Shown here piece by piece: positions 23,322 through 40,166 of a stretch of DNA of 64,000 bases; within the stretch, counting starts at the first letter, position 1; each line of letters begins with the position of its first letter. The position numbers and the translations under genes are program-made. The notes below the pieces were generated by a model. That model had not been told where the DNA came from, did no database searches, and saw only the letters and a list, made by a program, of their open reading frames with translations. Source of the DNA: Alphaproteobacteria bacterium (GTDB taxonomy: Bacteria > Pseudomonadota > Alphaproteobacteria > MPNO01 > UBA830); the NCBI GenBank assembly GCA_965221485.1, contig OZ244893.1, positions 3,515,726-3,579,725 on the forward strand, written 5' to 3'.

Positions 23322-24029
23322 ATGAGTGAAGGATTTCAGTTTCTCGATATTGTTCTCTTCGCGATGGTAGCCGTATTTCTGGCTCTCCGGTTGCGTAGTG
23401 TGCTGGGCAAGCGAACGGGACATCATCGACAACGGTCGGACCCGCTCTCCCAGGGCCGCCCGCCGGCGCCGGTTGACGCCGGGCCGGAGGATCGTGAGGA
23501 ACGAGGAAGAATGCCGGCCCCGGAAACCCTCGATTCGCCCCCTCAGGAAGAAAGAATCGAACCGGAACCGGACGACGAAGTGGCTTTCGTACTCACGAGA
23601 CTCTCTATCCTCGACGAGACCTTCGAAAGACAAACCTTCATGGAAGGAGCCCGGGCGGCGTTTGACCTGATTGTCAACGCTTTCGCGAAAGGCGATCTGG
23701 ACGTTTTGCGCGATATGTTGGCCGAAGATGTTTTCCAGAATTTCGCCGATGCCATTGCGGAGCGCCGCACGGCGGGCGAGACACTCGAGACGACGATCAT
23801 GAGCCTCAAGTCGGCCCGGATCGTGGACGCGGAACTGACAGAAGAGGACGCCGTTATCACCGTCTCGTTTGTTTCCGAACAGATCAATATCACCAGAGAT
23901 GAAGAAGGTCGGATCGTCGGAGGGGATCCTCACGAGATGATGGAAATCACTGATGTCTGGAGTTTCCGACGCAAGACCCGGTCCAGGGATCCAAACTGGA
24001 CACTGGTAGAAACCAGGAGCGAGACATAG
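23322..24029 (+). CDS. Tim44-like domain protein
   Basis: N-terminal TM helix, charged linker and C-terminal Tim44-like fold ('FLEGARAAFDLIVNAFAKGDLDVLRDML'). ATG 23322 is chosen; the longer ORF from 23124 lacks homology. This is the conserved alphaproteobacterial neighbour of mltA. Confidence 0.7.
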   Translation: MSEGFQFLDIVLFAMVAVFLALRLRSVLGKRTGHHRQRSDPLSQGRPPAPVDAGPEDREERGRMPAPETLDSPPQEERIEPEPDDEVAFVLTRLSILDETFERQTFMEGARAAFDLIVNAFAKGDLDVLRDMLAEDVFQNFADAIAERRTAGETLETTIMSLKSARIVDAELTEEDAVITVSFVSEQINITRDEEGRIVGGDPHEMMEITDVWSFRRKTRSRDPNWTLVETRSET

Positions 24030-24069: not shown

Positions 24070-25290
24070 GTGGCCGGAACTGTTCAGGCCAACACGAACA
24101 AGGTGAGAAGCCGCTGGACGGCTGTTTGGTTGGGGGTACTGGTTGCGGTCGGCCTGACTGCCTGCGCGAGCCCACCACCAGAGACCCAGGATATTCGTTT
24201 CGAGCGGGTGCGCTTCAGCGACCTTCCCGGCTGGCAGAACGACGACCATGCCGCGGCGTTGTCAGTCCTGCACCGGTCCTGTCCGAACTTGCGAGCTTCG
24301 GGGACGGGCCGGCACGGGACCATTGCCGACTGGCGGCGGATTTGCGACCAGCTGGAAACCATCGGGTCATCGGAAGCGCGATCGTTCCTGGAGCGGAACT
24401 TCGAGCCTTTTCGTGTCACCGCGCCCGATGGTAATGACAAGGGTCTCATCACGGGATATTTCGAACCGGAGTTGAGGGGTTCGCGACAGCCGGGTTCTCG
24501 TTTCGATACACCGCTCTACAGACGTCCACCGGAACTGGTCTCGGTTGAACTCGGGGAGTTCCGGGAAGAGTATCGTGGGGAGACAATCACCGGGCATATC
24601 GTGGCCGGCAGGCTTCGTCCCTATTTTGATCGCCGTGACCTTGACCGGGGGGCGCTCGAGGGGCGCGGCCTTGAGCTGGTCTGGGTTGACAGCGCTGTTG
24701 ACGCGTTCTTTCTTCACATCCAGGGTTCGGGGCGAGTGCGTCTTCGCGACGGAACCGTGATAAGGCTGGGCTATGATGGTACGAACGGCCAACCCTACCG
24801 GGCCATTGGCCGCGACCTGATCCATCGCGGTGAAATTCCCCGCGAACATGTGTCCATGCAGTCAATCCGCAAATGGTTGACAGACAATCCCGGATCGGCA
24901 ACCGAACTGATGTGGGCCAACCGGTCCTACATCTTTTTCAGGATTCTGGAAGGGGAAGGACCGATCGGGACCGCCGGTCTTCCCCTGAGACCGGGCCGCA
25001 GCCTGGCGGTTGATCAGAGGCTGGTCCCGCTGGGGCTTCCGGTGTGGATCGACACCTATCTGCCGGATGACGAGCAAACGCCACTGCGTCGTCTGACAAT
25101 CGCCCAGGACACGGGCGGGGCGATCAGGGGCCCTGTCCGCGCAGATCTGTTCTGGGGTTCGGGCGATCGGGCTGCTGATATCGCAGGTCAAATGAAATCA
25201 TCCTTGCGATACTGGATTCTCAGCCCGACATCCGCGCTTTCGATTGCCGGGAGATCCGGTGTCCCGCTATCCCCGAGTCGTTCCAGGTGA
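24070..25290 (+). CDS. mltA: Membrane-bound lytic murein transglycosylase A (MltA)
   Basis: Lipoprotein signal (LVAVGLTAC), MltA domain and 3D domain ('GTAGLPLRPGRSLAVDQRLVPLGLPVWIDT'). Confidence 0.85.
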   Translation: MAGTVQANTNKVRSRWTAVWLGVLVAVGLTACASPPPETQDIRFERVRFSDLPGWQNDDHAAALSVLHRSCPNLRASGTGRHGTIADWRRICDQLETIGSSEARSFLERNFEPFRVTAPDGNDKGLITGYFEPELRGSRQPGSRFDTPLYRRPPELVSVELGEFREEYRGETITGHIVAGRLRPYFDRRDLDRGALEGRGLELVWVDSAVDAFFLHIQGSGRVRLRDGTVIRLGYDGTNGQPYRAIGRDLIHRGEIPREHVSMQSIRKWLTDNPGSATELMWANRSYIFFRILEGEGPIGTAGLPLRPGRSLAVDQRLVPLGLPVWIDTYLPDDEQTPLRRLTIAQDTGGAIRGPVRADLFWGSGDRAADIAGQMKSSLRYWILSPTSALSIAGRSGVPLSPSRSR

Positions 25291-25329: not shown

Positions 25330-26130
25330 ATGAAGGTCAGGATTGGCAATTTCGAGATAAATTATGAGGTCTGCGGGCCCGAGAAAGCCCCCTGGGTTAC
25401 GTTCAGCCATGCTCTTGGAAACAATTTGTCTCTATGGGATGAACAGGTGGCCTTGCTCTGCGACCGGTTCCGCATCCTGCGCTACGATCACCGCGGCCAC
25501 GGCGCGTCAGACGCACCTCCCGGCCCCTACAGCTTTGACGATCTCGAACGGGACGTGATCCAGCTGCTGGATCATCTCGGTATCGAGCGTACGCACTGGG
25601 TCGGCCTGTCCATTGGCGGTATGCTTGGTTACGGCCTTGCCCAGCATAATGGCGAGCGACTTCTCTCGCTTGTTGCCTGCGATTCACGGCCGGATGCACC
25701 GCCTGACTATGCGGCTTATTTCCAGTACCGTATCGACACGGTGCGAGCCGGCGGTATGGAGGCAGTCGTGGAGCCCACAATCGAGCGGTGGTTCACACCG
25801 AAGACACGACAGAGCAATCCGCCGGTTCTCGACAAGGTGAGAGCCATGTTGCGAAGCACCAGTGCGGAGGGTCATGAGGGATGCTGCGAGGCCCTGAAGC
25901 GGCTTTCCTTCGGATCCGGCCTCAGCCGGATCGCTATCCCGGTTCTGGTTCTCGGCGGGGCGGAGGACAAGGGAGCGCCTCCTGATGTCCTTGCCGAAGC
26001 CGCGGCGGCAATCCCCGACAGCCGACACGTGATCATCGAGGCGGCGGGACATATTTCCAATCTGGAGAATCCGAAGGCCGTAAACCGGGCGCTGGAGGCG
26101 TTTTACAGGGAGATCGGCGATGTATCTTGA
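25330..26130 (+). CDS. Alpha/beta-fold hydrolase (3-oxoadipate enol-lactonase / meta-cleavage-product-hydrolase-like)
   Basis: Nucleophile elbow 'GLSIGG', HGxxxxxxxW-type oxyanion region 'FSHALGNNLSLW' and 266 aa. The stop overlaps the start of the next gene. Confidence 0.8.
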   Translation: MKVRIGNFEINYEVCGPEKAPWVTFSHALGNNLSLWDEQVALLCDRFRILRYDHRGHGASDAPPGPYSFDDLERDVIQLLDHLGIERTHWVGLSIGGMLGYGLAQHNGERLLSLVACDSRPDAPPDYAAYFQYRIDTVRAGGMEAVVEPTIERWFTPKTRQSNPPVLDKVRAMLRSTSAEGHEGCCEALKRLSFGSGLSRIAIPVLVLGGAEDKGAPPDVLAEAAAAIPDSRHVIIEAAGHISNLENPKAVNRALEAFYREIGDVS

Positions 26131-26650
26131 ATCAGCTCCCCCTCCTGATGGCCCGCGCGGGTCCGACATCATTGCCGCGATCAAGGCTGCCAGCGTTTCA
26201 CATGTTGCCGCGTTGCCCGATATCACGACCAGTGAGGGTCTTCTTCGGCCATTGTCGCAGGATTCGGATCTGCGGCTCATTCGCCTCAGCAAGGAGGATG
26301 AGGGAGTTTCCATCTGCGCAGGGCTAGGGTATTGCGAAAAGCGCGCCGTGTTGCTGATGCAACAGACCGGGCTGATGGACTCTCTCAATGCGGTGCGCGC
26401 CATTGCCGTCGATTATCAGCAGCCCATTTGCATGCTTGTGGGCCTGCTCGGAAAAGAGCCTGATCGCGCCCCCCGCGAGTCTGACAGTTACGGTGTGCGC
26501 ATCATCGAACCGATCCTCGAGGCCATGGAAATCGATCACCTGCTTGTCGAATCCCCGGGTGATGTTGACCGGATCACACCGGCAATCGACCGGGCCTACC
26601 AGCAATCCCGTCCGTTGGTGGTGCTGTTCGGGAAGTGGATCCGCCAATGA
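26120..26650 (+). CDS. Sulfopyruvate/phosphonopyruvate decarboxylase alpha-subunit-like protein (TPP enzyme N-terminal Pyr-domain half, ComD-like)
   Basis: 176-aa protein matching the N-terminal (pyrimidine-binding) half of TPP-dependent 2-oxo-acid decarboxylases split as in ComD. RBS GGGAGA; overlaps the hydrolase stop. Confidence 0.68.
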   Translation: MYLESAPPPDGPRGSDIIAAIKAASVSHVAALPDITTSEGLLRPLSQDSDLRLIRLSKEDEGVSICAGLGYCEKRAVLLMQQTGLMDSLNAVRAIAVDYQQPICMLVGLLGKEPDRAPRESDSYGVRIIEPILEAMEIDHLLVESPGDVDRITPAIDRAYQQSRPLVVLFGKWIRQ

Positions 26651-27228
26651 TGCAGCGCAGGGAGTGTTTCGAGAGAATTGCCGAACTGCGGGGAGGCGCC
26701 ATCGTTGTCGCAACCTACACCTCTGCATTCGAATGGCGCAGCGTCGATCCCAGCCCTCTGAATTTCGTGAGCATCGGTGCCATGGGCCAGGCATCGTCCC
26801 ATGCGCTGGGGCTTGCCCTCGGACTGTCGGATCACAGGATCATCGTACTGGACGGCGATGGCAGTCTGCTCATGAATTTGTCGAGTCTGGCCACCATTGC
26901 GAACGCTGCCCCCTCAAACCTGCTTCACTTTGTTATCGAAAACGGGACCTACGAAGCCAATGGCGGACATCCGATTCCGGGGCAGGGACGGATCGACTTT
27001 GCCGGACTGGCCCAGGCTGCAGGATATCCCGCGGTCTACAGTTTCGAAGGTATCAACCGCTTCGCTTCAGACCTGCCGGGTGTCATGGCAGCCCGGGGAC
27101 CCGTATTTGCCGCCCTGAAGGTGGAAGCCGGGACGGCGCCTCCGGTCGAATATGATTACGAATGGTTGCACAGCGAAGATCGTCGCAGTGAATTTCGGGA
27201 GGCCATTCGGCCATACATCCGGCCCTGA
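26647..27228 (+). CDS. Sulfopyruvate/phosphonopyruvate decarboxylase beta-subunit-like protein (TPP-binding PP-domain half, ComE-like)
   Basis: TPP-binding motif 'GDGSLLMNLSSLATIA..N' (GDG-X24-N) and ~193 aa. The ATG overlaps the comD-like stop as ATGA; the ORF-track start is GTG 26635. Confidence 0.68.
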   Translation: MMQRRECFERIAELRGGAIVVATYTSAFEWRSVDPSPLNFVSIGAMGQASSHALGLALGLSDHRIIVLDGDGSLLMNLSSLATIANAAPSNLLHFVIENGTYEANGGHPIPGQGRIDFAGLAQAAGYPAVYSFEGINRFASDLPGVMAARGPVFAALKVEAGTAPPVEYDYEWLHSEDRRSEFREAIRPYIRP

Positions 27229-27417
27229 CCCAACCCAAAATCGGGAGCCGTGAAAAAGATGAGAGGGATATGGTCATTCAGGCGCGAGGCCGTTGGCAAC
27301 GGTTGTGGAGACTGCGCCGGATATCAGCCCCTCCCGGCGGCGCGTTGAAAATATATCCTGCCTGACCGGTCACCGGAATGCAGCTGTCGCCCTGATCATC
27401 CTGTCCCTGGAGAGCCG

Positions 27418-28794
27418 TCAGACCGGCTGGAACAGAAGGTCAGGCAGATAGGTTGCAATCTCGGGGTACATCATGATCGCGACCATCGCGATGAGCATCA
27501 GGATCCAGTACGGAACCGAACTTCTGAATATCGTCATGACATTGATGTCCGGATCAATACCCTGAATCGCAGACTTTACGGTATAGACGAGCAGCCCGAA
27601 CGGCGGGGTCAATAATCCTGCTTCGATGGCAATGATTGCGATAACCGCGAAAGCGATGGGATCGTAACCCAGCTTGACCGCAATCGGAGCGAAGATGGCT
27701 GCTGTGAGCAGCATGATCGAGATCGAATCGATGATCATGCCGAGGGCAAACCAGATCAGGACCATTACGGTCAGGATCATCCATGGAGCCATGGCTCCGT
27801 TCAGGAATACACCCTCAATGGCGTTGGTCACGCCGGTCATTGCGAGCGTTCGGGAGTAAAGGGCAGCGGTGACAAGTAACAGGAGTATCGGTGCCGATGT
27901 ACGGCCGACCGACAGTACGGCATCAATGAACTCCCGCAGACGCATACCCTTGATGATTCCCAGAAGGAGCCCGATGAAGGCGCCTGCGCCTGCGCCTTCG
28001 GTCGGAGTGAAAACACCAAACCAGATCCCGCCCAGCACGACAACGATCACGAGAAGGATACCACCGAGGCTGACGAGGAACTGGAGCGTGGAGACCTCCT
28101 CCTCCCCTGCAACCGCAGCCTGGTCCGCTTCCGACTGGTTCCGGTGCGTGGTCCCGATACCAACAAGATCGGGTCTCAGCACCGAGACAGAAAATGCGTA
28201 AATGACGAACAGTGTCGTCAGAAGAAGCCCGGGCAGGATGCCGGCGGCAAAGATTTGCCCGATGGACTGTTCGGTGAGGATGCCCCAGACGATCATCAGG
28301 ACGCTGGGAGGAATCAGCATGCCGAGGCAGCTTGAACCGGCAACAGCCCCCAAAGCGAATCCGCGGTGGTATCCGAACCGTTTCATTTCCGGGTAGGCAA
28401 TACGGGAAAATGCGGCAGCCGATGCAATGCTCACGCCTGTCACAAAGGAAAACAGCGCGTTTCCGAGGACGGTCGCAATGGCCAGCCGGCCGGGCAGCCG
28501 GTGCAGCAGCCGGTTGATACCCCGGTAGACGTCGGTGACAGTGCCGGACTTGCCGATGAACTCGCCCATCAGCATGAAGAGCGGAATCACCGCGAATACA
28601 TAGGCGCGGATAGCCTCATAGGCCGTCGCTGCCAGCATGGTCTGTACGGTCTCGAAAGCGTAGGAGTCCGCGCCTGTCACGATGAAGATGCCAAGTGCGC
28701 TCGTCATGCCGAGGGCAATGGCAATATGGACGCCGAGAGCGACCAGGGCGACCAGACAGATGACCAGCAAAATGGCGACGTTGGCTTCGAACAC
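27418..28794 (-). CDS. dctM: TRAP transporter large permease DctM
   Basis: 458-aa 12-TM DctM-family protein; conserved motifs throughout. Confidence 0.9.
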   Translation of the reverse strand: MFEANVAILLVICLVALVALGVHIAIALGMTSALGIFIVTGADSYAFETVQTMLAATAYEAIRAYVFAVIPLFMLMGEFIGKSGTVTDVYRGINRLLHRLPGRLAIATVLGNALFSFVTGVSIASAAAFSRIAYPEMKRFGYHRGFALGAVAGSSCLGMLIPPSVLMIVWGILTEQSIGQIFAAGILPGLLLTTLFVIYAFSVSVLRPDLVGIGTTHRNQSEADQAAVAGEEEVSTLQFLVSLGGILLVIVVVLGGIWFGVFTPTEGAGAGAFIGLLLGIIKGMRLREFIDAVLSVGRTSAPILLLLVTAALYSRTLAMTGVTNAIEGVFLNGAMAPWMILTVMVLIWFALGMIIDSISIMLLTAAIFAPIAVKLGYDPIAFAVIAIIAIEAGLLTPPFGLLVYTVKSAIQGIDPDINVMTIFRSSVPYWILMLIAMVAIMMYPEIATYLPDLLFQPV

Positions 28795-28828
28795 CGTTCG
28801 GGTTTCCTATTCCGGAATTCTGATAGCG

Positions 28829-29347
28829 CTAGTCAACGCCATCATCGATGTCAGACTCCGGCATATCCGGTCGAACCACATCGATATAGGCCATGACGCC
28901 GTAATTCACCAATGCGAGGCCGCTCCCGATGAGAACGGTCCAGCGGGCCGGCCATGAGGGGACCCGTAAAGCGCCTTCCCCTTCAAATTCACCGTCGACA
29001 TAGGAGCGGATGCTCTCTTCCCATCCGCCCGTGATGATCATCAGAAAAAATGCCGCACCCAGAAGATAGCCAAAGGCAAGCAGGGCTCTCTGGACCCAGT
29101 CCGGAAAGTGGGTCACGAGGAACTCGGCTCTCAGCATGGACCGGCTGCGGATCGCGTAGCCCGCCTGCAGGAACACGACGATCACCACAGAGGCACTGAC
29201 CATTTCCACGGTTCCGTAGATTGGCCGGTCGAAGGCACTCCGTCCGATGATGTCGCCCAGCACCAGGAACACGAGGGCGAAAGCCCACAGTGCCGCCAGG
29301 ATCATGAGGATCTTGGAGATGCGATCACTCAGCGTTACGAGATTCAT
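28829..29347 (-). CDS. dctQ: TRAP transporter small permease DctQ
   Basis: ~172 aa with four TM helices, lying between dctP and dctM. The internal Met at 29347 is preferred over ORF start 29398; the start is uncertain. Confidence 0.7.
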   Translation of the reverse strand: MNLVTLSDRISKILMILAALWAFALVFLVLGDIIGRSAFDRPIYGTVEMVSASVVIVVFLQAGYAIRSRSMLRAEFLVTHFPDWVQRALLAFGYLLGAAFFLMIITGGWEESIRSYVDGEFEGEGALRVPSWPARWTVLIGSGLALVNYGVMAYIDVVRPDMPESDIDDGVD

Positions 29348-29501
29348 AGGGACGTTCCATGAGACAGCGGATCGCGGCAGAGATGACTGCCGCGACACGC
29401 TCCGGGATGACGGCCGGGGCCTGCTGCTGAAAGCCCCGGGCGTCGGGCGACCGAACGCGCTTGCCGGTCAACCGGCAAAAGTCATGCCGTTTGTGAACGG
29501 A

Positions 29502-30590
29502 TTACTTGATGACGTAGCGAACCGGCCACTGGTAACCCTGCTTCTCGGCCGCTGCAAGATAGGCGTTAAGAATCTTCTTTGCTGGCAAACCCTGCTTTTC
29601 CAGCATATCGGCGTGTGCCTGCGGCCAGTGGGCCAGACTCTTTGCCCAGGCAAGACGGACATCGGCAGGAAGATCGGAAACAGTGATATTTTCCCGCAAC
29701 CAGGCCATGTCTTTCTCGTACCCCGCCTTGTTCGCGGTGCCCGTTTTGGTCTCGAAACGATCGGCGACTTCCTGAACGATGACCTTCACTTCGTCGGGCA
29801 AACGTTTCCAGAACCGGTTGTTGACCGTAAGACCATGCCAGGTGATCGAGCCGAACCCGATCGTGGTGTAGTACTTGCCGACTTCCCACAACCCGAACGT
29901 CTTCCCCCAGGCACTGGGGAACATGATGCCACCTTCGGCAACACCGGTCTTGAGCTTCTGGTACCAGCCCGGCAATCCGTCGGTGACCGGAACGATACCG
30001 ATACCGGCCTGCTTCATCCAGTTGAGGTTGAGGCCGGCCCCGAGGATCTTTCGTCCCTTCAGGTCATCAAGTTTTTTCCATGGAAACTGGGTGCCCAGGT
30101 TGTAGCCGCCATCACCGATCAGTGCGATGAGAGTCTGGTTGAAATCCTGGAACCGGGCTTCAAGGATGGGAAACTGTGCGTAGACATCAGCTGCCGCTCC
30201 GACACTCTGGACCGGATCCATTGTCCCGAATGGCAACATGATCTGAAATGCGTGCATGGGCAGTTTGGAGGCTTCGAAGCAGTAACAGAAGCCGCCAATA
30301 TCCACGACGCCGTTCTGGACACCTTCAAGGGTATCGAAAACCTTGACAATGGAACCGCTGTAGCCCTCGATAAAGTTGATCTTGTGCGTGGTTCTCGACT
30401 CCACGGCTTTCTTCAACTCGGTCTGGAAAAACGTTTTCATCAGTCCCGCATAGACCACCGTCGGCGGGTGACCGGAAGCGATACGGATATTGATTGTCTT
30501 GGCGCTGACAGACGTCGCGCCGAAAGCGATGGACGCGGTGAGCAGGGCCGCGCCTGACAGTTTCAGCGCGTGTCTCGAAATTCTTTTCAT
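29502..30590 (-). CDS. dctP: TRAP transporter substrate-binding protein DctP family
   Basis: 362 aa with a signal peptide (AALLTASIAFGATSVSA) and the DctP/SBP_bac_7 fold. First gene of dctPQM on the minus strand. Confidence 0.85.
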   Translation of the reverse strand: MKRISRHALKLSGAALLTASIAFGATSVSAKTINIRIASGHPPTVVYAGLMKTFFQTELKKAVESRTTHKINFIEGYSGSIVKVFDTLEGVQNGVVDIGGFCYCFEASKLPMHAFQIMLPFGTMDPVQSVGAAADVYAQFPILEARFQDFNQTLIALIGDGGYNLGTQFPWKKLDDLKGRKILGAGLNLNWMKQAGIGIVPVTDGLPGWYQKLKTGVAEGGIMFPSAWGKTFGLWEVGKYYTTIGFGSITWHGLTVNNRFWKRLPDEVKVIVQEVADRFETKTGTANKAGYEKDMAWLRENITVSDLPADVRLAWAKSLAHWPQAHADMLEKQGLPAKKILNAYLAAAEKQGYQWPVRYVIK

Positions 30591-30912
30591 GTGATGGAGT
30601 CTCCTTGTTTCAACCAGCCAATGGCCGGAGTTGGGTCATATCGTCCCCAGGCCGTCGGGCGCAACGGATGAGCTTGCGTGCGGTACTGTATCAACATATG
30701 CCGAAACCGCAATCACTCCGGAGGACACCCTGACTCTCGAAAGATTATCGTGATCCCGTTGGTAATGCCGATGCTCCCCCGGAAACCGGGTTGGCAGTTA
30801 ATCCGCCCGAACGAAGGATCCGGGTGGAGCTTCGGGCAGGGTGTGACACCCCGGGATGCGTGGGTCACAAACCCTGTGGCTCCGACGATCTGAAGTCGCG
30901 AACGGGTCAGGG

Positions 30913-31527
30913 TCAGGCAGACTGGTCGAGGGGCCAGTGCGGTGCAGCATCCTCTTCCACCTGGGCGTCGAAGGTGATCAGGGCCGCAGCCGTCATGGCA
31001 TAGGATCCCATCGTATAGACCAGATCGACCAGCATGCGCCGGTCAAAATGCGCTGCCAGTCTGGCGTAGGTCTCTGAAGATACCCGATGGGTTCCGAACA
31101 ACTCGCGCCCAAGACCGATAATTGCGGCTTCGACCGGGTCGAGCGCGTCGATCGCACCACGTGTGCTGATCGCTTCGATTGTCGCCTCGGACACACCGGA
31201 CTTTCGCGCTGCTCCGGCGTGGGCTGCCCATTCAAACCGGCAGTGATGCTCCCGGGCCGTGGTCAGAATGGCCACCTCACGGTAGCGCGCCGGGATCCCC
31301 GACCCGTTCCGGAGGTAGTGATTGAGCGGCCTTGAATGGGCGCAGAGACCGGGGCTGTGAAGCTGGATGCCGCCCGGACCCCTGAGGCCTGCGAGAGATC
31401 CCCCCTCGGGGTCTGCCAGGACGTCAAACATGGCCCGGGTTGCGTCATCGAGCTCGTCGCGCCGCGGCAGGGGCAGGCGGCTACCGGATTCCGGATCAAT
31501 ATCCGGATTGGTTGGCGGTTCTTTCAT
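30913..31527 (-). CDS. Carboxymuconolactone decarboxylase (CMD/AhpD-like) family protein
   Basis: CMD core 'EVAILTTAREHHCRFEWAAHAGAARKSG' and 204 aa. Confidence 0.72.
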   Translation of the reverse strand: MKEPPTNPDIDPESGSRLPLPRRDELDDATRAMFDVLADPEGGSLAGLRGPGGIQLHSPGLCAHSRPLNHYLRNGSGIPARYREVAILTTAREHHCRFEWAAHAGAARKSGVSEATIEAISTRGAIDALDPVEAAIIGLGRELFGTHRVSSETYARLAAHFDRRMLVDLVYTMGSYAMTAAALITFDAQVEEDAAPHWPLDQSA

Positions 31528-31566
31528 GCTTGCAGTTTCCCGGCAAGAGGAGCGTAGGAGGAAGCC

Positions 31567-32547
31567 TCAGATATCAAGGCGAAATAGCCGTACGGCATTG
31601 GTGCGCCCGATCTTTTTCCGGTCCGCCTCACTGATCGTGCAGGTGTCGAACCACGCCGCAGCGTGGTCGACATTCTCGAAAGGCCAGTCGACCGAAAACA
31701 GGATTCGGTCGGATCCCACTTCGAGCATGGTATTGATCAGCGCCTGGGTCCGGAAATTCCCCGATGTCGTAATATAGAAATTGTCCTGAAGATACTCGGC
31801 GAACTTGCGCTTTGCGGGATAACCGGGGGATGCCTCGGTCCATCCGTTCCGGTTGTCGCAGCGCCAGATGCTGAAGGGGAGGCCTTCACCCATGTGCCCC
31901 AGGACGATTTGCAAATCGGGGTGTTCGTCAAAAATTCCCGATGCCATCAGGCGCAGCGCGTGAACCGCGGTCTCCTGTCCAAACGCCCAGGTGGGCCCCA
32001 GCAACCACGGGTGGCCTTCATAGATTTGCGCCATGCTCGGCAATGGATTCCGGGGGTGAAGGTAAAAGGGAACATCTAGATCCGCGATGACGCTCCAGAA
32101 CGGTCGATACTGGGGCAGATCGTAATAATAGGCCGTATCGGGCTCGTCGATCTGTGAAAATCCGTTGACCATCGTTCCCACGAAGCCCAGATCCCGGACG
32201 CACCGCTCCATCTCCCCGCAGGCCGCGTCCACATCCTGCAGTGGCAGGGCGGCAAAACCGCGGAACCGTGAAGGATGCCTCGTGACCCATTCCGCCAGCG
32301 CATCATTGGCGCGACGGGCGATATCACGGGCCTTTTGCCGATCGGGGATGGCCTGGATCGCCGGCGCATTCAGCGACAGAATCATCAGCTCAACGCCATG
32401 CTTGTCCATCTCCTCAAGGCGCCGGCCCTCGATGTCGAGAATCCGCTGAGAGAGTTCCTTCCAGGTAAAATCAGGCAAGAAGCCCTGGGAGTCTGTCAGT
32501 GTTTCCTCGGTCGCGAAATGCTCCTCAAGAGCAATCTTTCCCTTCAT
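31567..32547 (-). CDS. Amidohydrolase-2 family non-oxidative (hydroxy)aromatic-acid decarboxylase (ACMSD / gamma-resorcylate / 2,3-DHBA / IDCase-type)
   Basis: N-terminus 'MKGKIALEEHFATEE' is the hallmark metal-binding start of this decarboxylase subfamily. Has 'HPW', 'HMGE' and 'DWPF' metal and active-site motifs; RBS GGGAGA. Confidence 0.8.
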   Translation of the reverse strand: MKGKIALEEHFATEETLTDSQGFLPDFTWKELSQRILDIEGRRLEEMDKHGVELMILSLNAPAIQAIPDRQKARDIARRANDALAEWVTRHPSRFRGFAALPLQDVDAACGEMERCVRDLGFVGTMVNGFSQIDEPDTAYYYDLPQYRPFWSVIADLDVPFYLHPRNPLPSMAQIYEGHPWLLGPTWAFGQETAVHALRLMASGIFDEHPDLQIVLGHMGEGLPFSIWRCDNRNGWTEASPGYPAKRKFAEYLQDNFYITTSGNFRTQALINTMLEVGSDRILFSVDWPFENVDHAAAWFDTCTISEADRKKIGRTNAVRLFRLDI

Positions 32548-32821
32548 GGATCATTCTCCCTGGTGTTCCCGTTTGGAGGGCCGGGCTGCAAGTGCCCTGC
32601 TCTCGTTCCATTGTTGCACCGCAGTTTCGCGAAGTGTCTTGCAGAGTGGCGCCCCGATCGGCCTTTCCGGGAACGGCCAGTGATCAGGACGCACAGCCTT
32701 CAGGGTGCCGGCCGGTCCGGATGGCATCAAGGTGCAATCCCGGATCTTCAGGACCGGTCTCGGAACGGGCGCCTATCCCTGCCCGAAGGTTGTCTTTTCG
32801 GCGCTGCGTACAGTTCCCTTG

Positions 32822-35152
32822 CTATTCTGCTGCCACCCTCTGTTGCTGGCTCTTTTCGCGCAGCGCCTTCAGGACCTTGGGCGGCGACATGGGATGGTCG
32901 CGGAGCCGAACGCCCACGGCGTCATAGATTGCGTTCGAAATCGCTGCGAGCGGCGGGATAATGGGCACCTCCCCGATGCCTCGGACCCCGTAGGGATGAT
33001 CCGGGCTGGGGACTTCCACGATCTCCGTGCTGATGAAGGGCACATCGGAGGCCACCGGAACCCGGTAGTCAAGGAAGCTGGGATTCTCCAGCACGCCCTT
33101 GTCGTTGTAGATATACTCTTCATTCAGTGCGAACCCGATACCCTGAACCGCTCCGCCCTGAAACTGGCCCTTGATGAATTCGGGATAGAGCGCACCTCCG
33201 GCATCCTGGACAATCGTATAGCGCAAGACCTTGACCGCACCGGTTCGGGTATCCACCTCGACATCGACCATGTGGGTTCCGAATCCTGGTCCTCCCTGGG
33301 CTACATTGATTTCCGCGTGACCGGCAATGGTGCCTCCGAACCAGGCCGCTTCGCGCGCGAGTTCGGCAACCGACAGGGGTTCGAAATCTCCTACATTTGC
33401 GCCGGCAGGCCGGGCTTTGCCGTCTTCCCAGACCACCTGATCCGGTTCGACCTCCCACTTGCGTGCAGCGATTTCGCACATCCGCGCGATTGCGTCCCGG
33501 GATGCCTTGACGGCAGCCATGCTACCGGCTGCAGTTCCGCGACTTCCCGCCGTCATGAAGTTGAAGCCCAGCGTGCTCGTGTCGCCGGACATGGTCCTCA
33601 CCTTTTCGAATGGAATTCCCAGCTCCTCGGCCACGATCATGGCGAGGGCCGCACGGGACCCTCCCGTTACGTCAACCGTGCCGAATATCAGGGTTGCGGT
33701 TCCATCCTCACCGATATTAAGCGTCGCGGATGTTTCGGCTCCAAGGGTAAACCAGAAGCCGGACGCAATGCCGCGGCCCTGATTGGGCCCGAGTTTTTCC
33801 TGGCGGTGCGGGTGAGACCGTATGCGCTCTAGCGTCTCGATGAAGCCAATCGGGCCCAGTTTGGGACCGAAATGGGTTTGCGTGCCTTCCTTCGCTGCGT
33901 TCCTCAACCGGAAGTCGACCGGATCCATTCCCAGTGATTCCGCAAGTTCGTCAATCACGGTTTCGACGCCGAACGCCACCATGGGCGCCCCTGGCGCACG
34001 ATAGGCCGCGACCTTGGGGCGGTTGGTCGTGACGTCATGTCCAACGACCCGGACATTCTCGATATCGTAACGGGTGAACACCGTGATGGTGGCAAGCGGG
34101 AGAGACGAACCAGCATAGGCGCCGGACTGGTAGTTCAGCTCCGCCTCTGCGAAGGTGATCCGGCCTTCCCTGTCAGCACCCATCCGGACCTTCACGTTGG
34201 TCCCGGAGGTCGGACCGGTGGCCCGAAAGACCTCGTCCCGATCCATCACAATGCGGACCGGTCGCTTTGCCTTTCGTGACAGGACCACGGCAACCGGTTC
34301 CAGATACACATTGTTCTTTCCGCCGAACCCACCGCCGATTTCTGTCGGTGTCACCTTGACCCTTGAAATATCCATTTTGAGCAGCTTGGCGATCTGGGCA
34401 CGGAATACAAAGTGACCCTGGGTTGCCGTCCAGACTTCGGCATAGCCGCCTTCGGTGTAGTTGGCGACGCAGGCCTGTGGCTCGATGTAACCCTGGTGAA
34501 CCGGCTTGGTATTGAATTCGCGCTCGATGATAATGTCCGCTTCGCTCTCGCCCTTCTCGATATCGCCAAGCGCGCTCTGCAGTCGTGCTGCCACGTTCGA
34601 CGGTTTGGAGGGCGCCGGATCGACACCGCGTGTGAACTGATCGGCATGCAGCACCGGTGCGTCGGGTTGCATGGCTTCCACAACATCGATGACATGAGGG
34701 AGAACTTCGTACTCCACCTTGATCCGCTTCATTGCCTCGCGTGCGATGGCTTCGCTGCTTGCCGCGACCGCGGCCACGGGATGGCCGTCATACAGGACGT
34801 TTTCGCGGGCCATCATGTTACGCGTCACATCCCGAAAATTGACCATGAGTTCCCCGGAAGCCGCATGTTCGACCTCCATGTCCGGAAAGTCGTTGCGCGT
34901 GACGACGGCCTTGACACCCGGAAGACTCTCGGCCTCAGATGTGTCAATGGAGAGGATGTTGGCGCGGGCGTGCGGACTGCGGAGAACCTTTCCGAACAGT
35001 TGTCCCGGGAGTTTGATATCGGCCGCAAACCGGGCGCTGCCGGTGACCTTGTCAACAGCATCGCCGCGCGCTGTCGGGTTCGAACCGACGATCTTCAGTT
35101 CCTTCCGTTCGTACGGAATTCTGGTGGCGTAGGGTGACGGTGCCCGTCCCAT
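32822..35152 (-). CDS. Molybdenum hydroxylase large (molybdopterin-binding) subunit, xanthine dehydrogenase / CoxL family
   Basis: 776 aa with an aldehyde-oxidase/XDH a/b-hammerhead and MoCo-binding domains. Active-site loop reads 'VAAYRAPGAP', which is neither form I VAYRCSFR nor the typical XDH motif. Confidence 0.85.
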   Translation of the reverse strand: MGRAPSPYATRIPYERKELKIVGSNPTARGDAVDKVTGSARFAADIKLPGQLFGKVLRSPHARANILSIDTSEAESLPGVKAVVTRNDFPDMEVEHAASGELMVNFRDVTRNMMARENVLYDGHPVAAVAASSEAIAREAMKRIKVEYEVLPHVIDVVEAMQPDAPVLHADQFTRGVDPAPSKPSNVAARLQSALGDIEKGESEADIIIEREFNTKPVHQGYIEPQACVANYTEGGYAEVWTATQGHFVFRAQIAKLLKMDISRVKVTPTEIGGGFGGKNNVYLEPVAVVLSRKAKRPVRIVMDRDEVFRATGPTSGTNVKVRMGADREGRITFAEAELNYQSGAYAGSSLPLATITVFTRYDIENVRVVGHDVTTNRPKVAAYRAPGAPMVAFGVETVIDELAESLGMDPVDFRLRNAAKEGTQTHFGPKLGPIGFIETLERIRSHPHRQEKLGPNQGRGIASGFWFTLGAETSATLNIGEDGTATLIFGTVDVTGGSRAALAMIVAEELGIPFEKVRTMSGDTSTLGFNFMTAGSRGTAAGSMAAVKASRDAIARMCEIAARKWEVEPDQVVWEDGKARPAGANVGDFEPLSVAELAREAAWFGGTIAGHAEINVAQGGPGFGTHMVDVEVDTRTGAVKVLRYTIVQDAGGALYPEFIKGQFQGGAVQGIGFALNEEYIYNDKGVLENPSFLDYRVPVASDVPFISTEIVEVPSPDHPYGVRGIGEVPIIPPLAAISNAIYDAVGVRLRDHPMSPPKVLKALREKSQQQRVAAE

Positions 35153-35166
35153 GATTCAGTCCTTTC

Positions 35167-35643
35167 CTATCCTGCCCGCATGTCCCGCGCGGCATCCTGA
35201 ACAGCTTCGACGACCTTGTGGTATCCGGTACAGCGACACAGGTTACCGGCCAGCCAGTAGCGGATCTCTTCTTCCGTAGGGTCCGGATTCTCCTTGAGCA
35301 GAGCCTTTGACGCGATCAGAAGTCCGGGCGTGCAGATGCCACATTGGAGGGCGACATGTTCAATGAACTGGTGTTGCAGGGGATGCAGTTCTTCGCCTTG
35401 CGCCATCCCCTCGATCGTTTCGATACTCTTGCCCTGTGCCTCGACCCCCAGCATGAGACAGGAGCAAATCAGAACATCGTCGACGATAACGCTGCACGCA
35501 CCGCAATCTCCTGTTGCGCACCCTTCCTTGGTGCCGGTGAGATCGAGCTCGTCACGCAGAACGTCAAGCAGGGTTTGCGTGGTATCGCAGAGGAACTCTG
35601 CTTCGTCCCCGTTGATTGTGGTGGTGATGTGATGTTTCGCCAT
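35167..35643 (-). CDS. Molybdenum hydroxylase small subunit, two [2Fe-2S] clusters (CoxS-like)
   Basis: Cys patterns 'CATGDCGACSV' and 'CGICTPG...CRCTGY'. The start overlaps the stop of the FAD subunit (TGATG). Confidence 0.9.
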   Translation of the reverse strand: MAKHHITTTINGDEAEFLCDTTQTLLDVLRDELDLTGTKEGCATGDCGACSVIVDDVLICSCLMLGVEAQGKSIETIEGMAQGEELHPLQHQFIEHVALQCGICTPGLLIASKALLKENPDPTEEEIRYWLAGNLCRCTGYHKVVEAVQDAARDMRAG

Positions 35644-36500
35644 CAGGATATTGCCCTCTCGCGTGCGATTTCGGCGGCCCGCCCGGCAAGCACACCGGCG
35701 ACTTCCTTGCGGAACTCGATGGTTCCCCGCTTGTCATTGATGGGTCGGCAAGCTGCGCTGGCGGCCTGCGACAAGGCTTCTTTCGCGTCTTCATCGACAG
35801 ATGTGCCCACCAGGGCCCGGGCAGCCGGCTCGACAACCAGGGGGCGGGGGGCCACAGCTCCCAGGGACACGCAAGCGTCCGTACACACTCCGTTCTGATC
35901 AAGGGTCAGGTTGACGGCTGCGCCGACGACAGCGATATCCATCTCGGTTCGTGGCGTGAAGCGCAGATAGGCGTCGCCGGACCGGGGTTTCCGTGCGGGC
36001 AGGTTGAAACTGACAACAATCTCACCCCTGGAAAGGGATGTCTGACCGGGTCCTGTAACAATGTCCTCGACCGGCGCCGTCCGGCGGCCGGAGGGACCGG
36101 CAATCGTGACTGTGGCACGGGCTGCAATCAGTGGTGGCACGCTGTCGGCAGCTGGTGAAGCGTTGCAAAGATTGCCCCCCATTGTTGCCCGTCCGCGGAC
36201 CTGCAGCGAGCCGATCAATCTGACACCGTCCATGATACCGGGCCAGGCGGCGCCGAAGCGTGGATGGTCCATCAACTCCTTGCCGGTTACGGCGGCCCCA
36301 ACCTGCCATTCACCGTTCGCTTCCGTAATCGCGCGCATCTCGGCAATGCCCTTGACGTCGACGATCAGGGCCGGGTCAACCAGGTCCGAATGCATCTGAA
36401 CCAGTACGTCGGTGCCGCCTGCGAGTACGCGTGCCGCGCCCGGCTCGTCCGCGATCAGCGAGCAGGCCTCATCAAGGCCCGCCGGTACGTGATACTTCAT
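35643..36500 (-). CDS. Molybdenum hydroxylase medium FAD-binding subunit (CoxM-like)
   Basis: FAD_binding_5 and CO_deh_flav_C domains ('AGGTDVLVQMH', 'MGGNLCNASPAADS'). The Met at 36500 gives the canonical ~285 aa. Confidence 0.85.
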   Translation of the reverse strand: MKYHVPAGLDEACSLIADEPGAARVLAGGTDVLVQMHSDLVDPALIVDVKGIAEMRAITEANGEWQVGAAVTGKELMDHPRFGAAWPGIMDGVRLIGSLQVRGRATMGGNLCNASPAADSVPPLIAARATVTIAGPSGRRTAPVEDIVTGPGQTSLSRGEIVVSFNLPARKPRSGDAYLRFTPRTEMDIAVVGAAVNLTLDQNGVCTDACVSLGAVAPRPLVVEPAARALVGTSVDEDAKEALSQAASAACRPINDKRGTIEFRKEVAGVLAGRAAEIARERAIS

Positions 36501-36586
36501 GGTGATTGCTCTTCGCTCCTGTTGCATGATCAGGGTTCGGCCAAAGACCGCCGCGCAGTTCCGGCCGGAGTCTCCCCGTCTCTGTA

Positions 36587-37297
36587 TCAGCCATCATCGC
36601 CGAGGGCCAATGCATTTCTGTAAATGTCGTCATACATCAGATGCTGCACTTCCAGCATCTGCCTGACCGTCTTGAGGACAAGTCTGCGTTCCCTGGTGCT
36701 GGTGGCGAACTGGTCGAGCAGTTTTCTGCCGACATCCGAATGTTCCTGGTCGGCGCTGTCATGTATGACCCAATAGGCGACGGCTTCATCACTCAGGCCG
36801 AACTGATCCTGGAGATTTCGGGCGATCCGGATGTAGAGGCCAGGAATCGCGGCCTCCCCTGCAAGCATGTGCGCAGCAACTCCTTCAAGGAAACTCTTTT
36901 GGCAAATCAGCGTGAAATACGCCTGAAACGCGACCACGCCCGCACAGTATGGCGGATCATACATGTCTTCAGGCCCGAGTTTCATACCCTTGGCGTAATT
37001 GAGATAGAGCCGGTGATGCGAGACACCGTCTGACATCAGCCGGCCAGTCGCCTCCTCATAGGCGACTTCGGCGATCATTTCCCGCCACACGGGGTCGGGA
37101 CATATGACATAGAGATTACCGTGATAATTGTGGTTGTGCAGGGGGATCCCGCCATGTTGCTGACAAATGTAGCGGGATTGCTCCCAGTTCCAGGTCCCTT
37201 CGACCATACCGGTCCACAACGCATGACCGTACATCGGCAATTCCCTGTGAATTTCGGAAATCCCGTCAAGTACATCCTGCGTGGTGAGGTCCGTCAC
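36587..37297 (-). CDS. Heme-oxygenase-like fold protein (PqqC/TenA/iron-containing redox enzyme family; candidate diiron oxidase)
   Basis: All-helical ~237-aa protein with paired E/H-containing helices (AYEEATG..HH, AHMLAGE, HDSADQEH) typical of this fold. Inferred start is GTG 37297 after GGAGGA; the longer ORF to 37471 has a non-homologous leader. Confidence 0.5.
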   Translation of the reverse strand: MTDLTTQDVLDGISEIHRELPMYGHALWTGMVEGTWNWEQSRYICQQHGGIPLHNHNYHGNLYVICPDPVWREMIAEVAYEEATGRLMSDGVSHHRLYLNYAKGMKLGPEDMYDPPYCAGVVAFQAYFTLICQKSFLEGVAAHMLAGEAAIPGLYIRIARNLQDQFGLSDEAVAYWVIHDSADQEHSDVGRKLLDQFATSTRERRLVLKTVRQMLEVQHLMYDDIYRNALALGDDG

Positions 37298-38346
37298 TGC
37301 ATCCTCCAAGATATGGCAACAAAATATGACGGGGTTGGCAGGCTCTGTCGAGTCCTGCGCCTCCGGGGCGATTGACGGCTGGTGGCTTGAGGGCCTCGAA
37401 AATCTCCGGATCTGACGCGAAACCGGACAGCTTCCCCAACCCGGACCTATATTGGCTGGGAACCACACCAACTACGGATGTTCCCATGACCCGGAGCGAG
37501 GCCACCCCGGCCAGTCCTTTCGCCCTTCGAAGCGATTTGAAACCCGTGTTGCGGAGGCGAATGGCCTGTGATCGCGCCTCTTCCGTCGCCACTACCAGAG
37601 AGGGGACGCTCTCCCGTCGCGGATCCCGGTGAAATGTTCAATACGATCCGTTCCATGGCCTGGAACCGGGGAGCGGAGACGCTCTCTTCCGGCTTGTTTC
37701 CTGATCTCTTCGACGATCCCGAATGATTTCCATGCACGGCGTAACAAGGGGTGCCGGAAGGCATGCTCGACCGGTTTCGTGAGCATAGGCAGGTGCCGAT
37801 TGCGGCGCCGATGGACAGTCAATCAGCAGGGACAACAGGGAGCGGCGATCCGGCCAGCTGTGACGTTGGCAAGGCGACCGGGGGCGCCAGCATCACATGG
37901 CGCTGGTTATGGAGAGGTCTCTGATCGGAATCCCGAGGCGTGATACCCCGAGGTCTTGATACAGGGAGTGATCTCCGGGATACCCGAGGCAGCGGCTCAG
38001 GTGACCAGCCCCCGGGGTCGATGACGGGCATCAGGGCCCCCAGCCGGCTGCAATCCCGGATCCAGTCTTCAGATCGTGATCAGTCCACTGATAACCGGGG
38101 TCTTGCGATTCCTGACCGTCGTCAGGAGATCGCGCTGACGGGTGTCTGGATCACGGACTGTCGGCGTCCGGTCAGGAATCAGGACTGAATGCCGGGACGG
38201 GCGTTGGCCCCGGTCTCGCTGGCAGGGTGTCGCCTGGCACTACGTCGGATGACCCGCGCTCTCAATCATCGGAATACAAAGTCAATATGAAATCCGTAAC
38301 CGGCGCTTTTGATCCTTGCCATCCTGTGGCGCCAGTACACGCGGCG

Positions 38347-38904
38347 CTAAAATAATTTGATCAATGCAACGATCAGTCCACCCTGGGCAATCAAGGCGCC
38401 CAACAACCATTTCAACATTTCAGCCTTGACCGCTTCGATGTCAGCCTTGGTTTCCTGGCGAAGGGCATCCATCTCGGCCTTGATTTCCTGGCGAAAGGCA
38501 TCCATGCCGGCTTCAACCGCTGCGATGGCCGCCCTGGTTTCCTGGCGAAGGGCATCCATCTCGGCCTTGATTTCCTGGCGAAAGGCATCCATGCCGGCTT
38601 CAACCGCTGCGATGGCCGCCCTGGTTTCCTGGCGAAAGGCATCCATGCCGGCCCTGGTTTCCTGGCGAAAGGCATCCATGCCGGCCCTGGTTTCCTGGCG
38701 AAAGGCATCCCTGCCGGCCATGGTTTCCTGGCGAAAGGCATCCCTGCCGGCCTCAATCGCTGCGATATCAGCCTTGGTCGCCAGGTTGGCGTTGAGAAGA
38801 GCGACATGCTCTTCTGCCAGGGTTTCCGCCTGTTGCTCGGTGAAGCCACTCTCCGTCAGACGCTTCACGAAACGGTGGGTGTCGAAGGCGATCGCTTCAG
38901 TCAT
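38347..38904 (-). CDS. DUF1640 family coiled-coil membrane-anchored protein with expanded internal repeats
   Basis: N-terminus 'MTEAIAFDTHRFVKRLTESGFTEQQAETLAEEH' matches DUF1640. It has a C-terminal TM helix and a central run of 11-residue repeats (DAFRQETRAGM). Confidence 0.62.
   Translation of the reverse strand: MTEAIAFDTHRFVKRLTESGFTEQQAETLAEEHVALLNANLATKADIAAIEAGRDAFRQETMAGRDAFRQETRAGMDAFRQETRAGMDAFRQETRAAIAAVEAGMDAFRQEIKAEMDALRQETRAAIAAVEAGMDAFRQEIKAEMDALRQETKADIEAVKAEMLKWLLGALIAQGGLIVALIKLF
38449..38754 (-). repeat. In-frame tandem repeat array inside the DUF1640 gene: 2 x 87 bp followed by 4 x 33 bp (near-identical units based on ggtttcctggcgaaaggcatccatgccggccct)
   Basis: Read directly from the sequence: units start at 38449, 38536, 38623, 38656, 38689 and 38722. 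The 87-bp units are themselves built from 33-bp-like sub-repeats. Confidence 0.85.
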
Positions 38905-40071: not shown

Positions 40072-40166
40072 CCTGCGAATCCCTCACTTTATTTACAGCG
40101 GCTTGGCGAGGCTTTCGGGCGCGCGCTATAGTCCCGGTCTTGCCCAATTGAATACAGGCTGGCCTC

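Follow-up and report, generated by a model that had tools for sequence, protein, structure and literature searches.

Four putative gene modules in an apparent twelve-gene catabolic cluster of an uncultured marine alphaproteobacterium

In this study we examine a block of 12 genes (positions 25330-37297) that encodes a TRAP (tripartite ATP-independent periplasmic) importer, a molybdenum (Mo) hydroxylase of the CoxMSL type, a decarboxylase, a heme-oxygenase-like protein and a split thiamine diphosphate (TPP) enzyme. The block lies in a 64,000-nucleotide stretch of DNA, hereafter the window, from an alphaproteobacterium of the UBA830 lineage (assembly GCA_965221485.1, contig OZ244893.1, positions 3,515,726 to 3,579,725 of the forward strand). 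Having fetched and compared about 150 related loci, we favor the hypothesis, to which we give a probability of about 0.5, that the block is a juxtaposition of four independently inherited modules, two of which would act together on an ortho-hydroxylated aromatic or heteroaromatic acid.

The first of these, module A (25330-27228, plus strand), would be an operon that joins a PcaD-like hydrolase with a TPP-dependent 2-oxoacid decarboxylase of two subunits. Module B (27418-30590), a DctPQM importer of the TRAP type, occupies this position in this genome alone. Module C (30913-32547) would consist of an orthologue of gamma-resorcylate decarboxylase and a protein of the carboxymuconolactone-decarboxylase/AhpD-like (CMD) family, and module D (32822-37297) of a three-subunit Mo enzyme preceded by a heme-oxygenase-like di-metal oxidase/oxygenase (HDO) similar to CADD. 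Within one family-level clade of uncultured marine Alphaproteobacteria, C and D together resemble an operon: this holds for the window, for four of the compared loci (L147, L149, L043 and L045) and, in part, for two more (L011 and L083).

From this unit, and from the presence of coxMSL elsewhere with decarboxylases of the UbiD and Amidohydro_2 types and with aromatic ring enzymes, we infer that an aromatic or N-heteroaromatic carboxylate with an ortho hydroxyl group is converted by modules C and D. In this scheme, the Mo enzyme would use water to oxidize either an aldehyde or a C-H of the ring, the decarboxylase would remove a carboxyl group next to a ring hydroxyl by the metal-chelated mechanism known for gamma-resorcylate decarboxylase, and the di-metal HDO would carry out an O2-dependent step. 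The TRAP importer, as a local acquisition, may feed these two modules in this genome, and module A would be transcribed separately and convergently but may share a process with the decarboxylase. The neighbourhood is uncharacterised but not extraordinary: it is a Mo-hydroxylase and decarboxylase cluster, presumably for an aromatic acid, with an unusual HDO partner.

Distribution and boundaries of the modules

All window proteins were searched against 80 loci that contain a CoxL orthologue (55-89% identity), mostly from uncultured marine Alphaproteobacteria, with some from Hyphomicrobiales, Burkholderiales, Gammaproteobacteria and SAR116. Genes in high-GC loci were taken from a caller based on third-position GC content and from tblastn. 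The only constant feature among the 80 loci is coxM-coxS-coxL itself. The decarboxylase (80-83% identity) follows coxL in four of them (L011, L043, L045 and L083), and in two (L043 and L045) HDO lies ahead of coxM. A CMD-like gene is located nearby in 12 of the 80, with 64-66% identity in L043 and L045 and 28-32% identity in the other ten, which are loci of the UBA830/UBA7314 type, at distances ranging from directly after coxL to about 9 kb away. TRAP genes co-occur with the CoxL orthologue in none of the 80 loci, nor do orthologues of the hydrolase and the TPP enzyme; for these genes only paralogues of 29-31% identity were identified, in L057, L068 and L078.

An operon-like arrangement was observed in L147, a 15-kb metagenome contig of a close relative with the order FxsA-Tim44-hydrolase/TPP trio-2-hydroxyacid dehydrogenase-CMD2-CMD-decarboxylase-coxL-S-M-HDO and no TRAP genes. 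Here, HDO-coxM-S-L-decarboxylase-CMD lie on one strand with all gaps at or below 80 bp, and the decarboxylase and CMD genes abut. The order HDO-coxMSL-decarboxylase-CMD is repeated in L149, L043 and L045, despite different flanks and GC contents (59-70%), and the CMD proteins of these four loci are 63-70% identical to that of the window.

In loci of the UBA830 type, the coxMSL orthologues are found near a UbiD decarboxylase, a cupin, a luciferase-like monooxygenase and a glutathione S-transferase. Likewise, the coxMSL orthologues of L033, L042 and L046 (73-75% identity) are located near a LigB-type dioxygenase, an IclR regulator, an HpaB-type hydroxylase and an Amidohydro_2 protein. The same three loci (e.g. 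L046, 10219-19538) also contain a second, divergent coxMSL set and an 872-residue Mo enzyme of the dimethyl sulfoxide reductase family with an NrfD-type membrane anchor.

The boundaries of the modules can also be recognized in the window. The minus-strand genes, from dctM through HDO, converge on the plus-strand trio, which is directly preceded by housekeeping genes for a Tim44-like protein (23124-24029) and MltA (24070-25290). The gaps on the minus strand are 59 bp between HDO and coxM, -1 bp between coxM and coxS, 14 bp between coxS and coxL, 274 bp between coxL and the decarboxylase, 39 bp between the decarboxylase and CMD, 322 bp between CMD and dctP, about 103-154 bp between dctP and dctQ, and 34 bp between dctQ and dctM. 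The tight packing described in an initial annotation of this sequence is thus real for coxM and coxS, which are joined by a TGATG stop/start overlap, but does not extend across the 274-bp and 322-bp gaps. The genes and domains that it named are all present (Table 1), although its title omitted the PcaD-like hydrolase, and no regulator domain was found by Pfam or NCBIfam in any of the 12 products, as it had noted. The lack of a regulator means less for a block made up of several units.

Table 1. Genes of the block at positions 25330-37297 of the window. Lengths are in amino acids (aa).
Gene or product	Position	Strand	Length	Domain evidence and remarks
PcaD-like alpha/beta-fold hydrolase	25330-26130	+	266 aa	Pfam Abhydrolase_1, 5.5e-33; first gene of the hydrolase-TPPa-TPPb trio
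TPPa, putative split TPP enzyme, alpha (N-terminal, pyrimidine-binding)	26120-26650	+	176 aa	Pfam TPP_enzyme_N, 23.2 bits, below cut-off
TPPb, putative split TPP enzyme, beta (C-terminal, diphosphate-binding)	26635-27228	+		Pfam TPP_enzyme_C, 2e-13
dctM, TRAP large membrane subunit	27418-28794	-		Pfam DctM, 5.3e-76
dctQ, TRAP small membrane subunit	28829-29398	-		Pfam DctQ, 4.5e-22
dctP, TRAP periplasmic solute-binding protein	29502-30590	-		Pfam DctP, 2.3e-17
CMD (carboxymuconolactone-decarboxylase/AhpD-like) family protein	30913-31527	-	204 aa	Pfam CMD, 2.3e-10 (40.7 bits)
Predicted gamma-resorcylate decarboxylase orthologue	31567-32547	-	326 aa	Amidohydro_2; N-terminus MKGKIALEEHF
coxL, molybdopterin-binding large subunit, xanthine-oxidase family	32822-35152	-		Pfam Ald_Xan_dh_C, MoCoBD_1, MoCoBD_2
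coxS, [2Fe-2S] small subunit	35167-35643	-		Pfam Fer2_2, Fer2
coxM, FAD (flavin adenine dinucleotide)-binding medium subunit	35643-36527	-		Pfam FAD_binding_5, CO_deh_flav_C
HDO, putative heme-oxygenase-like di-metal oxidase/oxygenase, CADD-like	36587-37297	-	236 aa	Pfam Haem_oxygenas_2, 1.3e-15

Predicted functions of the gene products

The decarboxylase is the sole component of the block with a close characterised relative. It aligns end to end (residues 1-325) and without indels to the solved gamma-resorcylate decarboxylases of Rhizobium (2DVT, 536 bits) and Polaromonas (3S4T/4QRO, 524 bits), and it is 69.2% identical to the product of the plasmid-borne tsdA gene of Rhizobium (TsdA/GraF). 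The residues E8, H10, H164, D287, H218, Arg229, Phe23 and F290 are kept (aleEHf, ylHprn, lgHmgeg, wRcd and vDwpF in the alignments). In 2DVT and 4QRO, Glu8, His10, His164 and Asp287 are the metal ligands, and His218, Arg229, Phe23 and Phe290 are the catalytic and substrate-binding residues. No NCBIfam model matched the protein. The sequence comparisons thus identify it as a predicted decarboxylase of the ortho-hydroxybenzoate type, orthologous to gamma-resorcylate decarboxylase, and this agrees with the initial annotation. The characterised enzyme converts 2,6-dihydroxybenzoate to resorcinol.

Orthologues of the decarboxylase adjoin zur and/or znuABC in L011, L043, L045, L083, L149 and in the MarineAlpha11 metagenome-assembled genomes (L150-152). 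In the window, znuC and znuB, which were assigned by homology to L083 and by their N-termini, are located at the left end (1-1017), 30 kb from the decarboxylase gene. A clear Zur box, ATGTTATAATATAACAT, was identified between znuA and zur in L150. With a Zur-box consensus, no site was found in the window, and only a half-site-like match was found upstream of the decarboxylase gene in L150.

The coxMSL products appear to form a complete three-subunit Mo hydroxylase of the xanthine-oxidase family. CoxL contains the motifs EIGGGFGGK at residue 273 and GIGE, with the catalytic glutamate, at residue 725; CoxS has ten cysteines, including both [2Fe-2S] cluster motifs; and CoxM has five scattered cysteines and no four-cysteine insert. 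The real start of CoxM is probably M10, giving 285 residues, in agreement with the 285-289 residues of its relatives. The best characterised relatives of CoxL are 4-hydroxybenzoyl-CoA reductase (307 bits) and 6-hydroxypseudooxynicotine dehydrogenase (271 bits), and CoxL, CoxM and CoxS all score far below every NCBIfam equivalog cut-off. Form I aerobic carbon monoxide dehydrogenase (CODH) was rejected: the active-site loop reads AAYRAPGAP, neither AYxCSFR nor AYRGAGR is present, and the TIGR02416 score is 300 bits against a cut-off of 991. The suggestion in the initial annotation that the enzyme hydroxylates an N-heteroaromatic acid is among those that did not gain support.

Two side observations concern the Mo enzyme. 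In a second assembly of the same organism (L001, 1034-2139; ENA contig_10), the 3' part of coxL is broken into two overlapping fragments of 178 and 204 residues; this is probably a frameshift assembly error and not a pseudogene, and the copy in the window is intact. Furthermore, a second Mo-enzyme set with the order M-L-S and 26-29% identity to the window subunits is present in L149 (5034-9459) and L043 (2730-6650), with glyceraldehyde dehydrogenase and CODH group 5 as its best NCBIfam matches. This set flanks HDO together with a gene for an isochorismatase-family hydrolase, which in L149 is immediately upstream of HDO. No second set was seen in L045. The second set and the hydrolase would fit two successive hydroxylations and an amidase.

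For the HDO protein, an AlphaFold model was built on an alignment of 24 homologues (pLDDT 89.4). The top Foldseek match is CADD, the 4-aminobenzoate synthase of Chlamydia (TM 0.82/0.89, rmsd 2.1 A, 21% identity), followed by PqqC, FlcD, UndA, BesC and HrmI. All six metal ligands of CADD (E81, H88, E142, H174, D178 and H181 in 1RCW) align with E81/E82, H94, E148, H179, D183 and H186, and these residues are invariant in the 24 family members. The position of Tyr27, the sacrificial or substrate tyrosine of CADD, is occupied by an invariant Trp28 in the HDO family. A CADD-type 4-aminobenzoate synthase was rejected because of this tryptophan, a TIGR04305 score of 48.7 bits against a cut-off of 200, and neighbours of a catabolic type. 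Based on the model, we would place the protein in a subfamily of its own among di-metal oxidases or oxygenases, and do not read it as a 4-aminobenzoate synthase. The gene has a GTG start preceded by GGAGGA, and the homologues are 233-239 residues long.

The genomic contexts of HDO homologues were studied in 57 metagenomic loci and in three look-ups centred on homologues; no homologue was found in the plasmid collection. These contexts are varied and look catabolic, with alpha/beta hydrolases, RidA, TRAP or ABC transporters and arrays of paralogs. CoxL-type genes are located near HDO homologues in about five of 22 long loci. The association of HDO with Mo hydroxylases is thus recurrent but not specific. 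In L005/L006 (16231-20699), three further HDO paralogs are interleaved with an ABC transporter of the NMT1/THI5 type; the array is located downstream of a complete set of cox genes, maturation genes included (coxD/E, xdhC and mocA-like).

The CMD protein contains only the generic Pfam domain, with no NCBIfam equivalog match and no relative in the PDB. The 4-carboxymuconolactone decarboxylase PcaC was tried and rejected, as no PcaC equivalog matched and the TIGR01926 score was weak (24 bits against a cut-off of 82).

The TRAP importer has a different history. Orthologues of DctP with 88, 78 and 71% identity are located beside secB, hydantoinase and acyl-CoA genes, and sugar-acid genes, respectively; the order dctP-Q-M is kept in L144-L146, and the system adjoins genes of the cluster only in the window genome. 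Since the DctP orthologues occur in such unrelated contexts, the importer can be seen as an independent and highly conserved module that landed here in this genome only. The best solved relative of DctP (68 bits) is uninformative about the ligand. The true start of dctQ is probably near 29347, as the second assembly of the same organism calls a protein of 172 residues.

The trio of module A is, to judge from its gene order, its own conserved operon. The hydrolase and TPPa genes overlap by 11 nt, and hydrolase orthologues of 73-77% identity are found directly upstream of TPPa and TPPb in L147, L148 and L150-152. In L148, the trio lies near FxsA-Tim44-MltA and is followed by unrelated genes, while the HDO-cox-decarboxylase cluster (L149) is about 46 kb away on the same 4.3-Mb contig from a close relative. 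The order in L150-152 is trio-CMD2-znuA-zur-znuCB-decarboxylase; the decarboxylase there has 75% identity, and cox and HDO are lacking. The trio is thus an old chromosomal neighbour of the decarboxylase and CMD-family genes, with which it may be functionally linked.

With regard to function, the hydrolase scores 254.9 bits on TIGR02427 (3-oxoadipate enol-lactonase, PcaD), where the cut-off is 255.85 bits, but its conserved partners are TPPa and TPPb, not pcaBCGH. TPPa reaches 89 bits on TIGR03845 (sulfopyruvate decarboxylase alpha; cut-off 148), and TPPb 113 of 313 bits on TIGR03297 (phosphonopyruvate decarboxylase) and 100 of 222 bits on TIGR03846 (sulfopyruvate decarboxylase). Both of these functions were rejected, as all three scores are below the equivalog cut-offs. 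TPPb shows a GDG-x26-N motif and has more than 100 clusters of homologues at 65-77% identity; its true start is probably a few codons inside the called gene, given that the homologues are 191-200 residues long. A TPP pair with 52% identity follows an aminotransferase on a Ruegeria plasmid, a context which suggests that the pair is a generic 2-oxoacid decarboxylase.

Regulatory signals and flanking sequences were also inspected. Promoter-like and terminator-like matches in the region are within chance (7 against 4.6 +/- 2.5, and 15 against 11.5 +/- 3.6, respectively). No Rfam match to a riboswitch or other RNA regulator was found in the gaps at the gathering score, and relaxing the threshold to E <= 1 gave only one chance match, to a snoRNA. 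A segment of about 1 kb upstream of HDO (37298-38346) contains no credible open reading frame and no Rfam match, and neither this segment nor the intergenic gaps show blastn or tblastx similarity to any fetched locus. The matching side of L147 carries an integrase fragment and a toxin gene, and the segment may be a scar of a mobile element.

Beyond it, on the minus strand, is a gene for a CCDC90-like coiled-coil protein (38347-39030), with six in-register copies (38432-38785) of a 114-nt unit with a 33-nt period and the peptide AGMDAFRQETR. The right flank (39229-45710) holds a second group of genes that looks catabolic; it encodes an enoyl-CoA hydratase, a PimC-like acyl-CoA dehydrogenase (ACAD), a flavoprotein, a citryl-CoA lyase and a family III CoA transferase, and is followed by a tRNA gene (45924-46011). 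The flavoprotein resembles 3-hydroxybenzoate-6-monooxygenase with a score below the cut-off (282 bits), and the citryl-CoA lyase scores above its cut-off (424 bits). These genes are not conserved beside the cluster in the relatives. The ACAD (40167-41327) was considered as a resorcinol hydroxylase and rejected, being PimC-like and not GraA-like.

Weighing of alternative explanations

Several observations weigh against a joint function of modules C and D. The coxMSL orthologues are solitary in many genomes, as expected for a self-sufficient oxidoreductase of broad specificity, and the 55%-identical set on Sinorhizobium pSymA stands alone. The gap between coxL and the decarboxylase widens to about 1 kb in L083, so that co-transcription is not assured there or in the window. 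A divergent zur gene follows the decarboxylase in L149, L043, L045 and L011, and in the first three of these it stands between the decarboxylase and CMD. At the deeper level of the order, the decarboxylase adjoins zur/znuABC and the trio rather than cox and HDO. As a reference for the gamma-resorcylate pathway, we used the canonical gra genes annotated on Rhizobium pRLG202, which encode a major facilitator superfamily (MFS) transporter, a MarR regulator, a flavin reductase, an ACAD-like resorcinol hydroxylase, TsdA, maleylacetate reductase and hydroxyquinol dioxygenase. Apart from TsdA, tblastn at E <= 1e-3 matched none of these proteins to the 64-kb window or its relatives, and neither a ring-cleavage enzyme nor a resorcinol hydroxylase of the known types was found in the window.

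It follows that a pure juxtaposition must be considered as the main rival, although we find it somewhat unlikely. According to this explanation, coxMSL is a self-contained enzyme of broad specificity, acting for example on an aldehyde, the decarboxylase belongs with its ancient neighbours zur/znuABC, being a metal-dependent enzyme retained close to genes for zinc uptake, and HDO, CMD and TRAP belong elsewhere. It would account for the occurrence of coxMSL orthologues in dozens of unrelated neighbourhoods, for the recurrent proximity of the decarboxylase to the zinc genes, and for HDO homologues in many contexts, with CoxL-type genes near a minority of them. It does not account for the operon-like packing from HDO to CMD in L147, the retention of this gene order in genomes of different GC content and with different flanks, or the recurrence of a CMD-like gene near coxL. 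Nor does the window contain a Zur-box-like site that would tie the decarboxylase to zinc. We favor the juxtaposition of modules in which C and D form one unit.

The opposite explanation, a single catabolic operon or regulon of all 12 genes, corresponds to the initial annotation: the importer would take up a hydroxylated (hetero)aromatic carboxylate, to be hydroxylated by the Mo enzyme and decarboxylated, with the other products processing it further. The genes are indeed contiguous with no unrelated insertions, three lineages (the window, L147 and L150-152) keep the trio, the decarboxylase and a CMD-family gene together, and in L002 the 7 kb around an HDO homologue (77% identity) include alpha/beta hydrolases and a distantly related split-TPP pair (26-27% identity). 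However, this TRAP system was found beside none of the CoxL, HDO and TPPb relatives examined and has its orthologues in unrelated contexts, the trio lies on the opposite strand in a convergent orientation and is remote from the rest in L148/L149, two of the minus-strand gaps are wide, and coxMSL mostly occurs without the other genes of the block. We found no supporting evidence for a 12-gene operon and consider it unlikely. The part of the proposal that holds is the operon-like packing of HDO-coxMSL-decarboxylase-CMD in L147; what does not hold is a single operon with everything needed for uptake and conversion, because TRAP is local to this genome and the trio is a separate unit.

In a more far-reaching and, in our opinion, very unlikely scenario, marine Alphaproteobacteria would have a new catabolic route in which HDO activates O2. 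The preparation of a dihydroxy-(aza)arene would then fall to the Mo hydroxylase and the gamma-resorcylate-type decarboxylase; it is this compound which the heme-oxygenase-like di-iron enzyme would hydroxylate or open in place of a flavin hydroxylase and an intradiol dioxygenase, while CMD would handle the product. If true, the HDO superfamily would thereby gain its first catabolic role in ring processing. A weaker alternative is that the hydrolase, TPP, CMD2 and decarboxylase genes by zur-znuABC form a zinc-responsive unit.

It is highly improbable that the block is a copy of a characterised pathway for gamma-resorcylate (gra/tsd), picolinate (pic), nicotinate (nic) or protocatechuate (pca): despite the 69% identity of the decarboxylase to TsdA/GraF and a hydrolase at the PcaD threshold, the other pRLG202 gra genes are unmatched, the Cox subunits are far under the equivalog cut-offs, and no pic- or nic-type dioxygenase, amidase or isomerase is encoded.

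Returning to the preferred hypothesis, a real unit of modules C and D would define a substrate for a subfamily of Mo hydroxylases that is very widespread and strongly conserved in uncultured marine Alpha-, Beta- and Gammaproteobacteria, here represented by 80 species-level genomes with 55-89% identity. It would also provide the first physiological role outside biosynthesis for the CADD-like family of di-metal oxygenases, and it would place gamma-resorcylate-type decarboxylases at work outside the classical resorcinol pathway. For genome mining, the lesson is that contiguity alone overstated the case: it was the comparison of neighbourhoods that split the apparent 12-gene cluster into four modules.

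Comparison with known systems

In no single characterised cluster does each gene of the block have an orthologue above 60% identity, and the block is thus not a known pathway. This agrees with the initial annotation, which could match it to none: the downstream gra/tsd genes are absent from the window and, the decarboxylase aside, a score close to an NCBIfam equivalog cut-off is reached by the hydrolase only, while the other products score far below. A literature search for resorcylate decarboxylases with molybdenum or TRAP, or for heme-oxygenase-like proteins with molybdenum, found nothing relevant. Catabolism of homarine (N-methylpicolinate) was also considered and rejected, as the hom operon is flavin-based and unrelated.

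Among the individual systems, 4-hydroxybenzoyl-CoA reductase (HcrABC) and 6-hydroxypseudooxynicotine dehydrogenase (KdhLMS) share the three-subunit architecture and cofactor domains with coxMSL and are its best matches in NCBIfam and the PDB. We rejected 4-hydroxybenzoyl-CoA reductase as the function, since the subunits reach only 468 of 995 bits (HcrA), 171 of 258 and 119 of 405. Unlike HcrB, the FAD subunit of the window lacks the four-cysteine insert for a [4Fe-4S] cluster, at which the beta-subunit match (TIGR03195) is split. Likewise, the sulfopyruvate decarboxylase ComDE and phosphonopyruvate decarboxylase are the best NCBIfam matches of the TPP pair, with which they have in common a split enzyme of about 175 + 195 residues and the GDG...N diphosphate motif. 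In the window, however, the pair is partnered by a PcaD-like hydrolase and not by sulfolactate or phosphonate genes. The HDO protein shares the seven-helix fold and all six metal ligands with CADD and other HDOs (PqqC fold, FlcD, UndA, BesC and HrmI), but its family differs from CADD in an additional invariant LHNHNYHG/CPDP motif and in a genomic context that looks catabolic and not related to folate biosynthesis.

The pathways for picolinate and for quinolinate or nicotinate resemble the block in design. PicA and PicC are a pair of a three-subunit Mo dehydrogenase and an Amidohydro_2 decarboxylase. These pathways (bioRxiv 10.1101/457895) likewise combine a CoxMSL-type Mo enzyme with a non-oxidative, metal-dependent decarboxylase of ortho-hydroxy acids. 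The 12 products of the block differ in having no domains of a 2,5-dihydroxypyridine dioxygenase, a deformylase, a (maleamate) amidase or a (maleate) isomerase, and the decarboxylase of the window groups with the gamma-resorcylate decarboxylases.

In the gamma-resorcylate systems themselves, gra of Rhizobium sp. MTP-10005 (graRDAFCBE) and tsd of Rhodococcus jostii RHA1, the decarboxylase is orthologous to the window protein over the full length and has the same ligands and catalytic residues. There, it is accompanied by a two-component resorcinol hydroxylase, hydroxyquinol 1,2-dioxygenase, maleylacetate reductase, a MarR regulator and an MFS transporter, none of which is encoded in the block. 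In the window, by contrast, its neighbours are the Mo hydroxylase, the HDO, the CMD protein and the TRAP importer.

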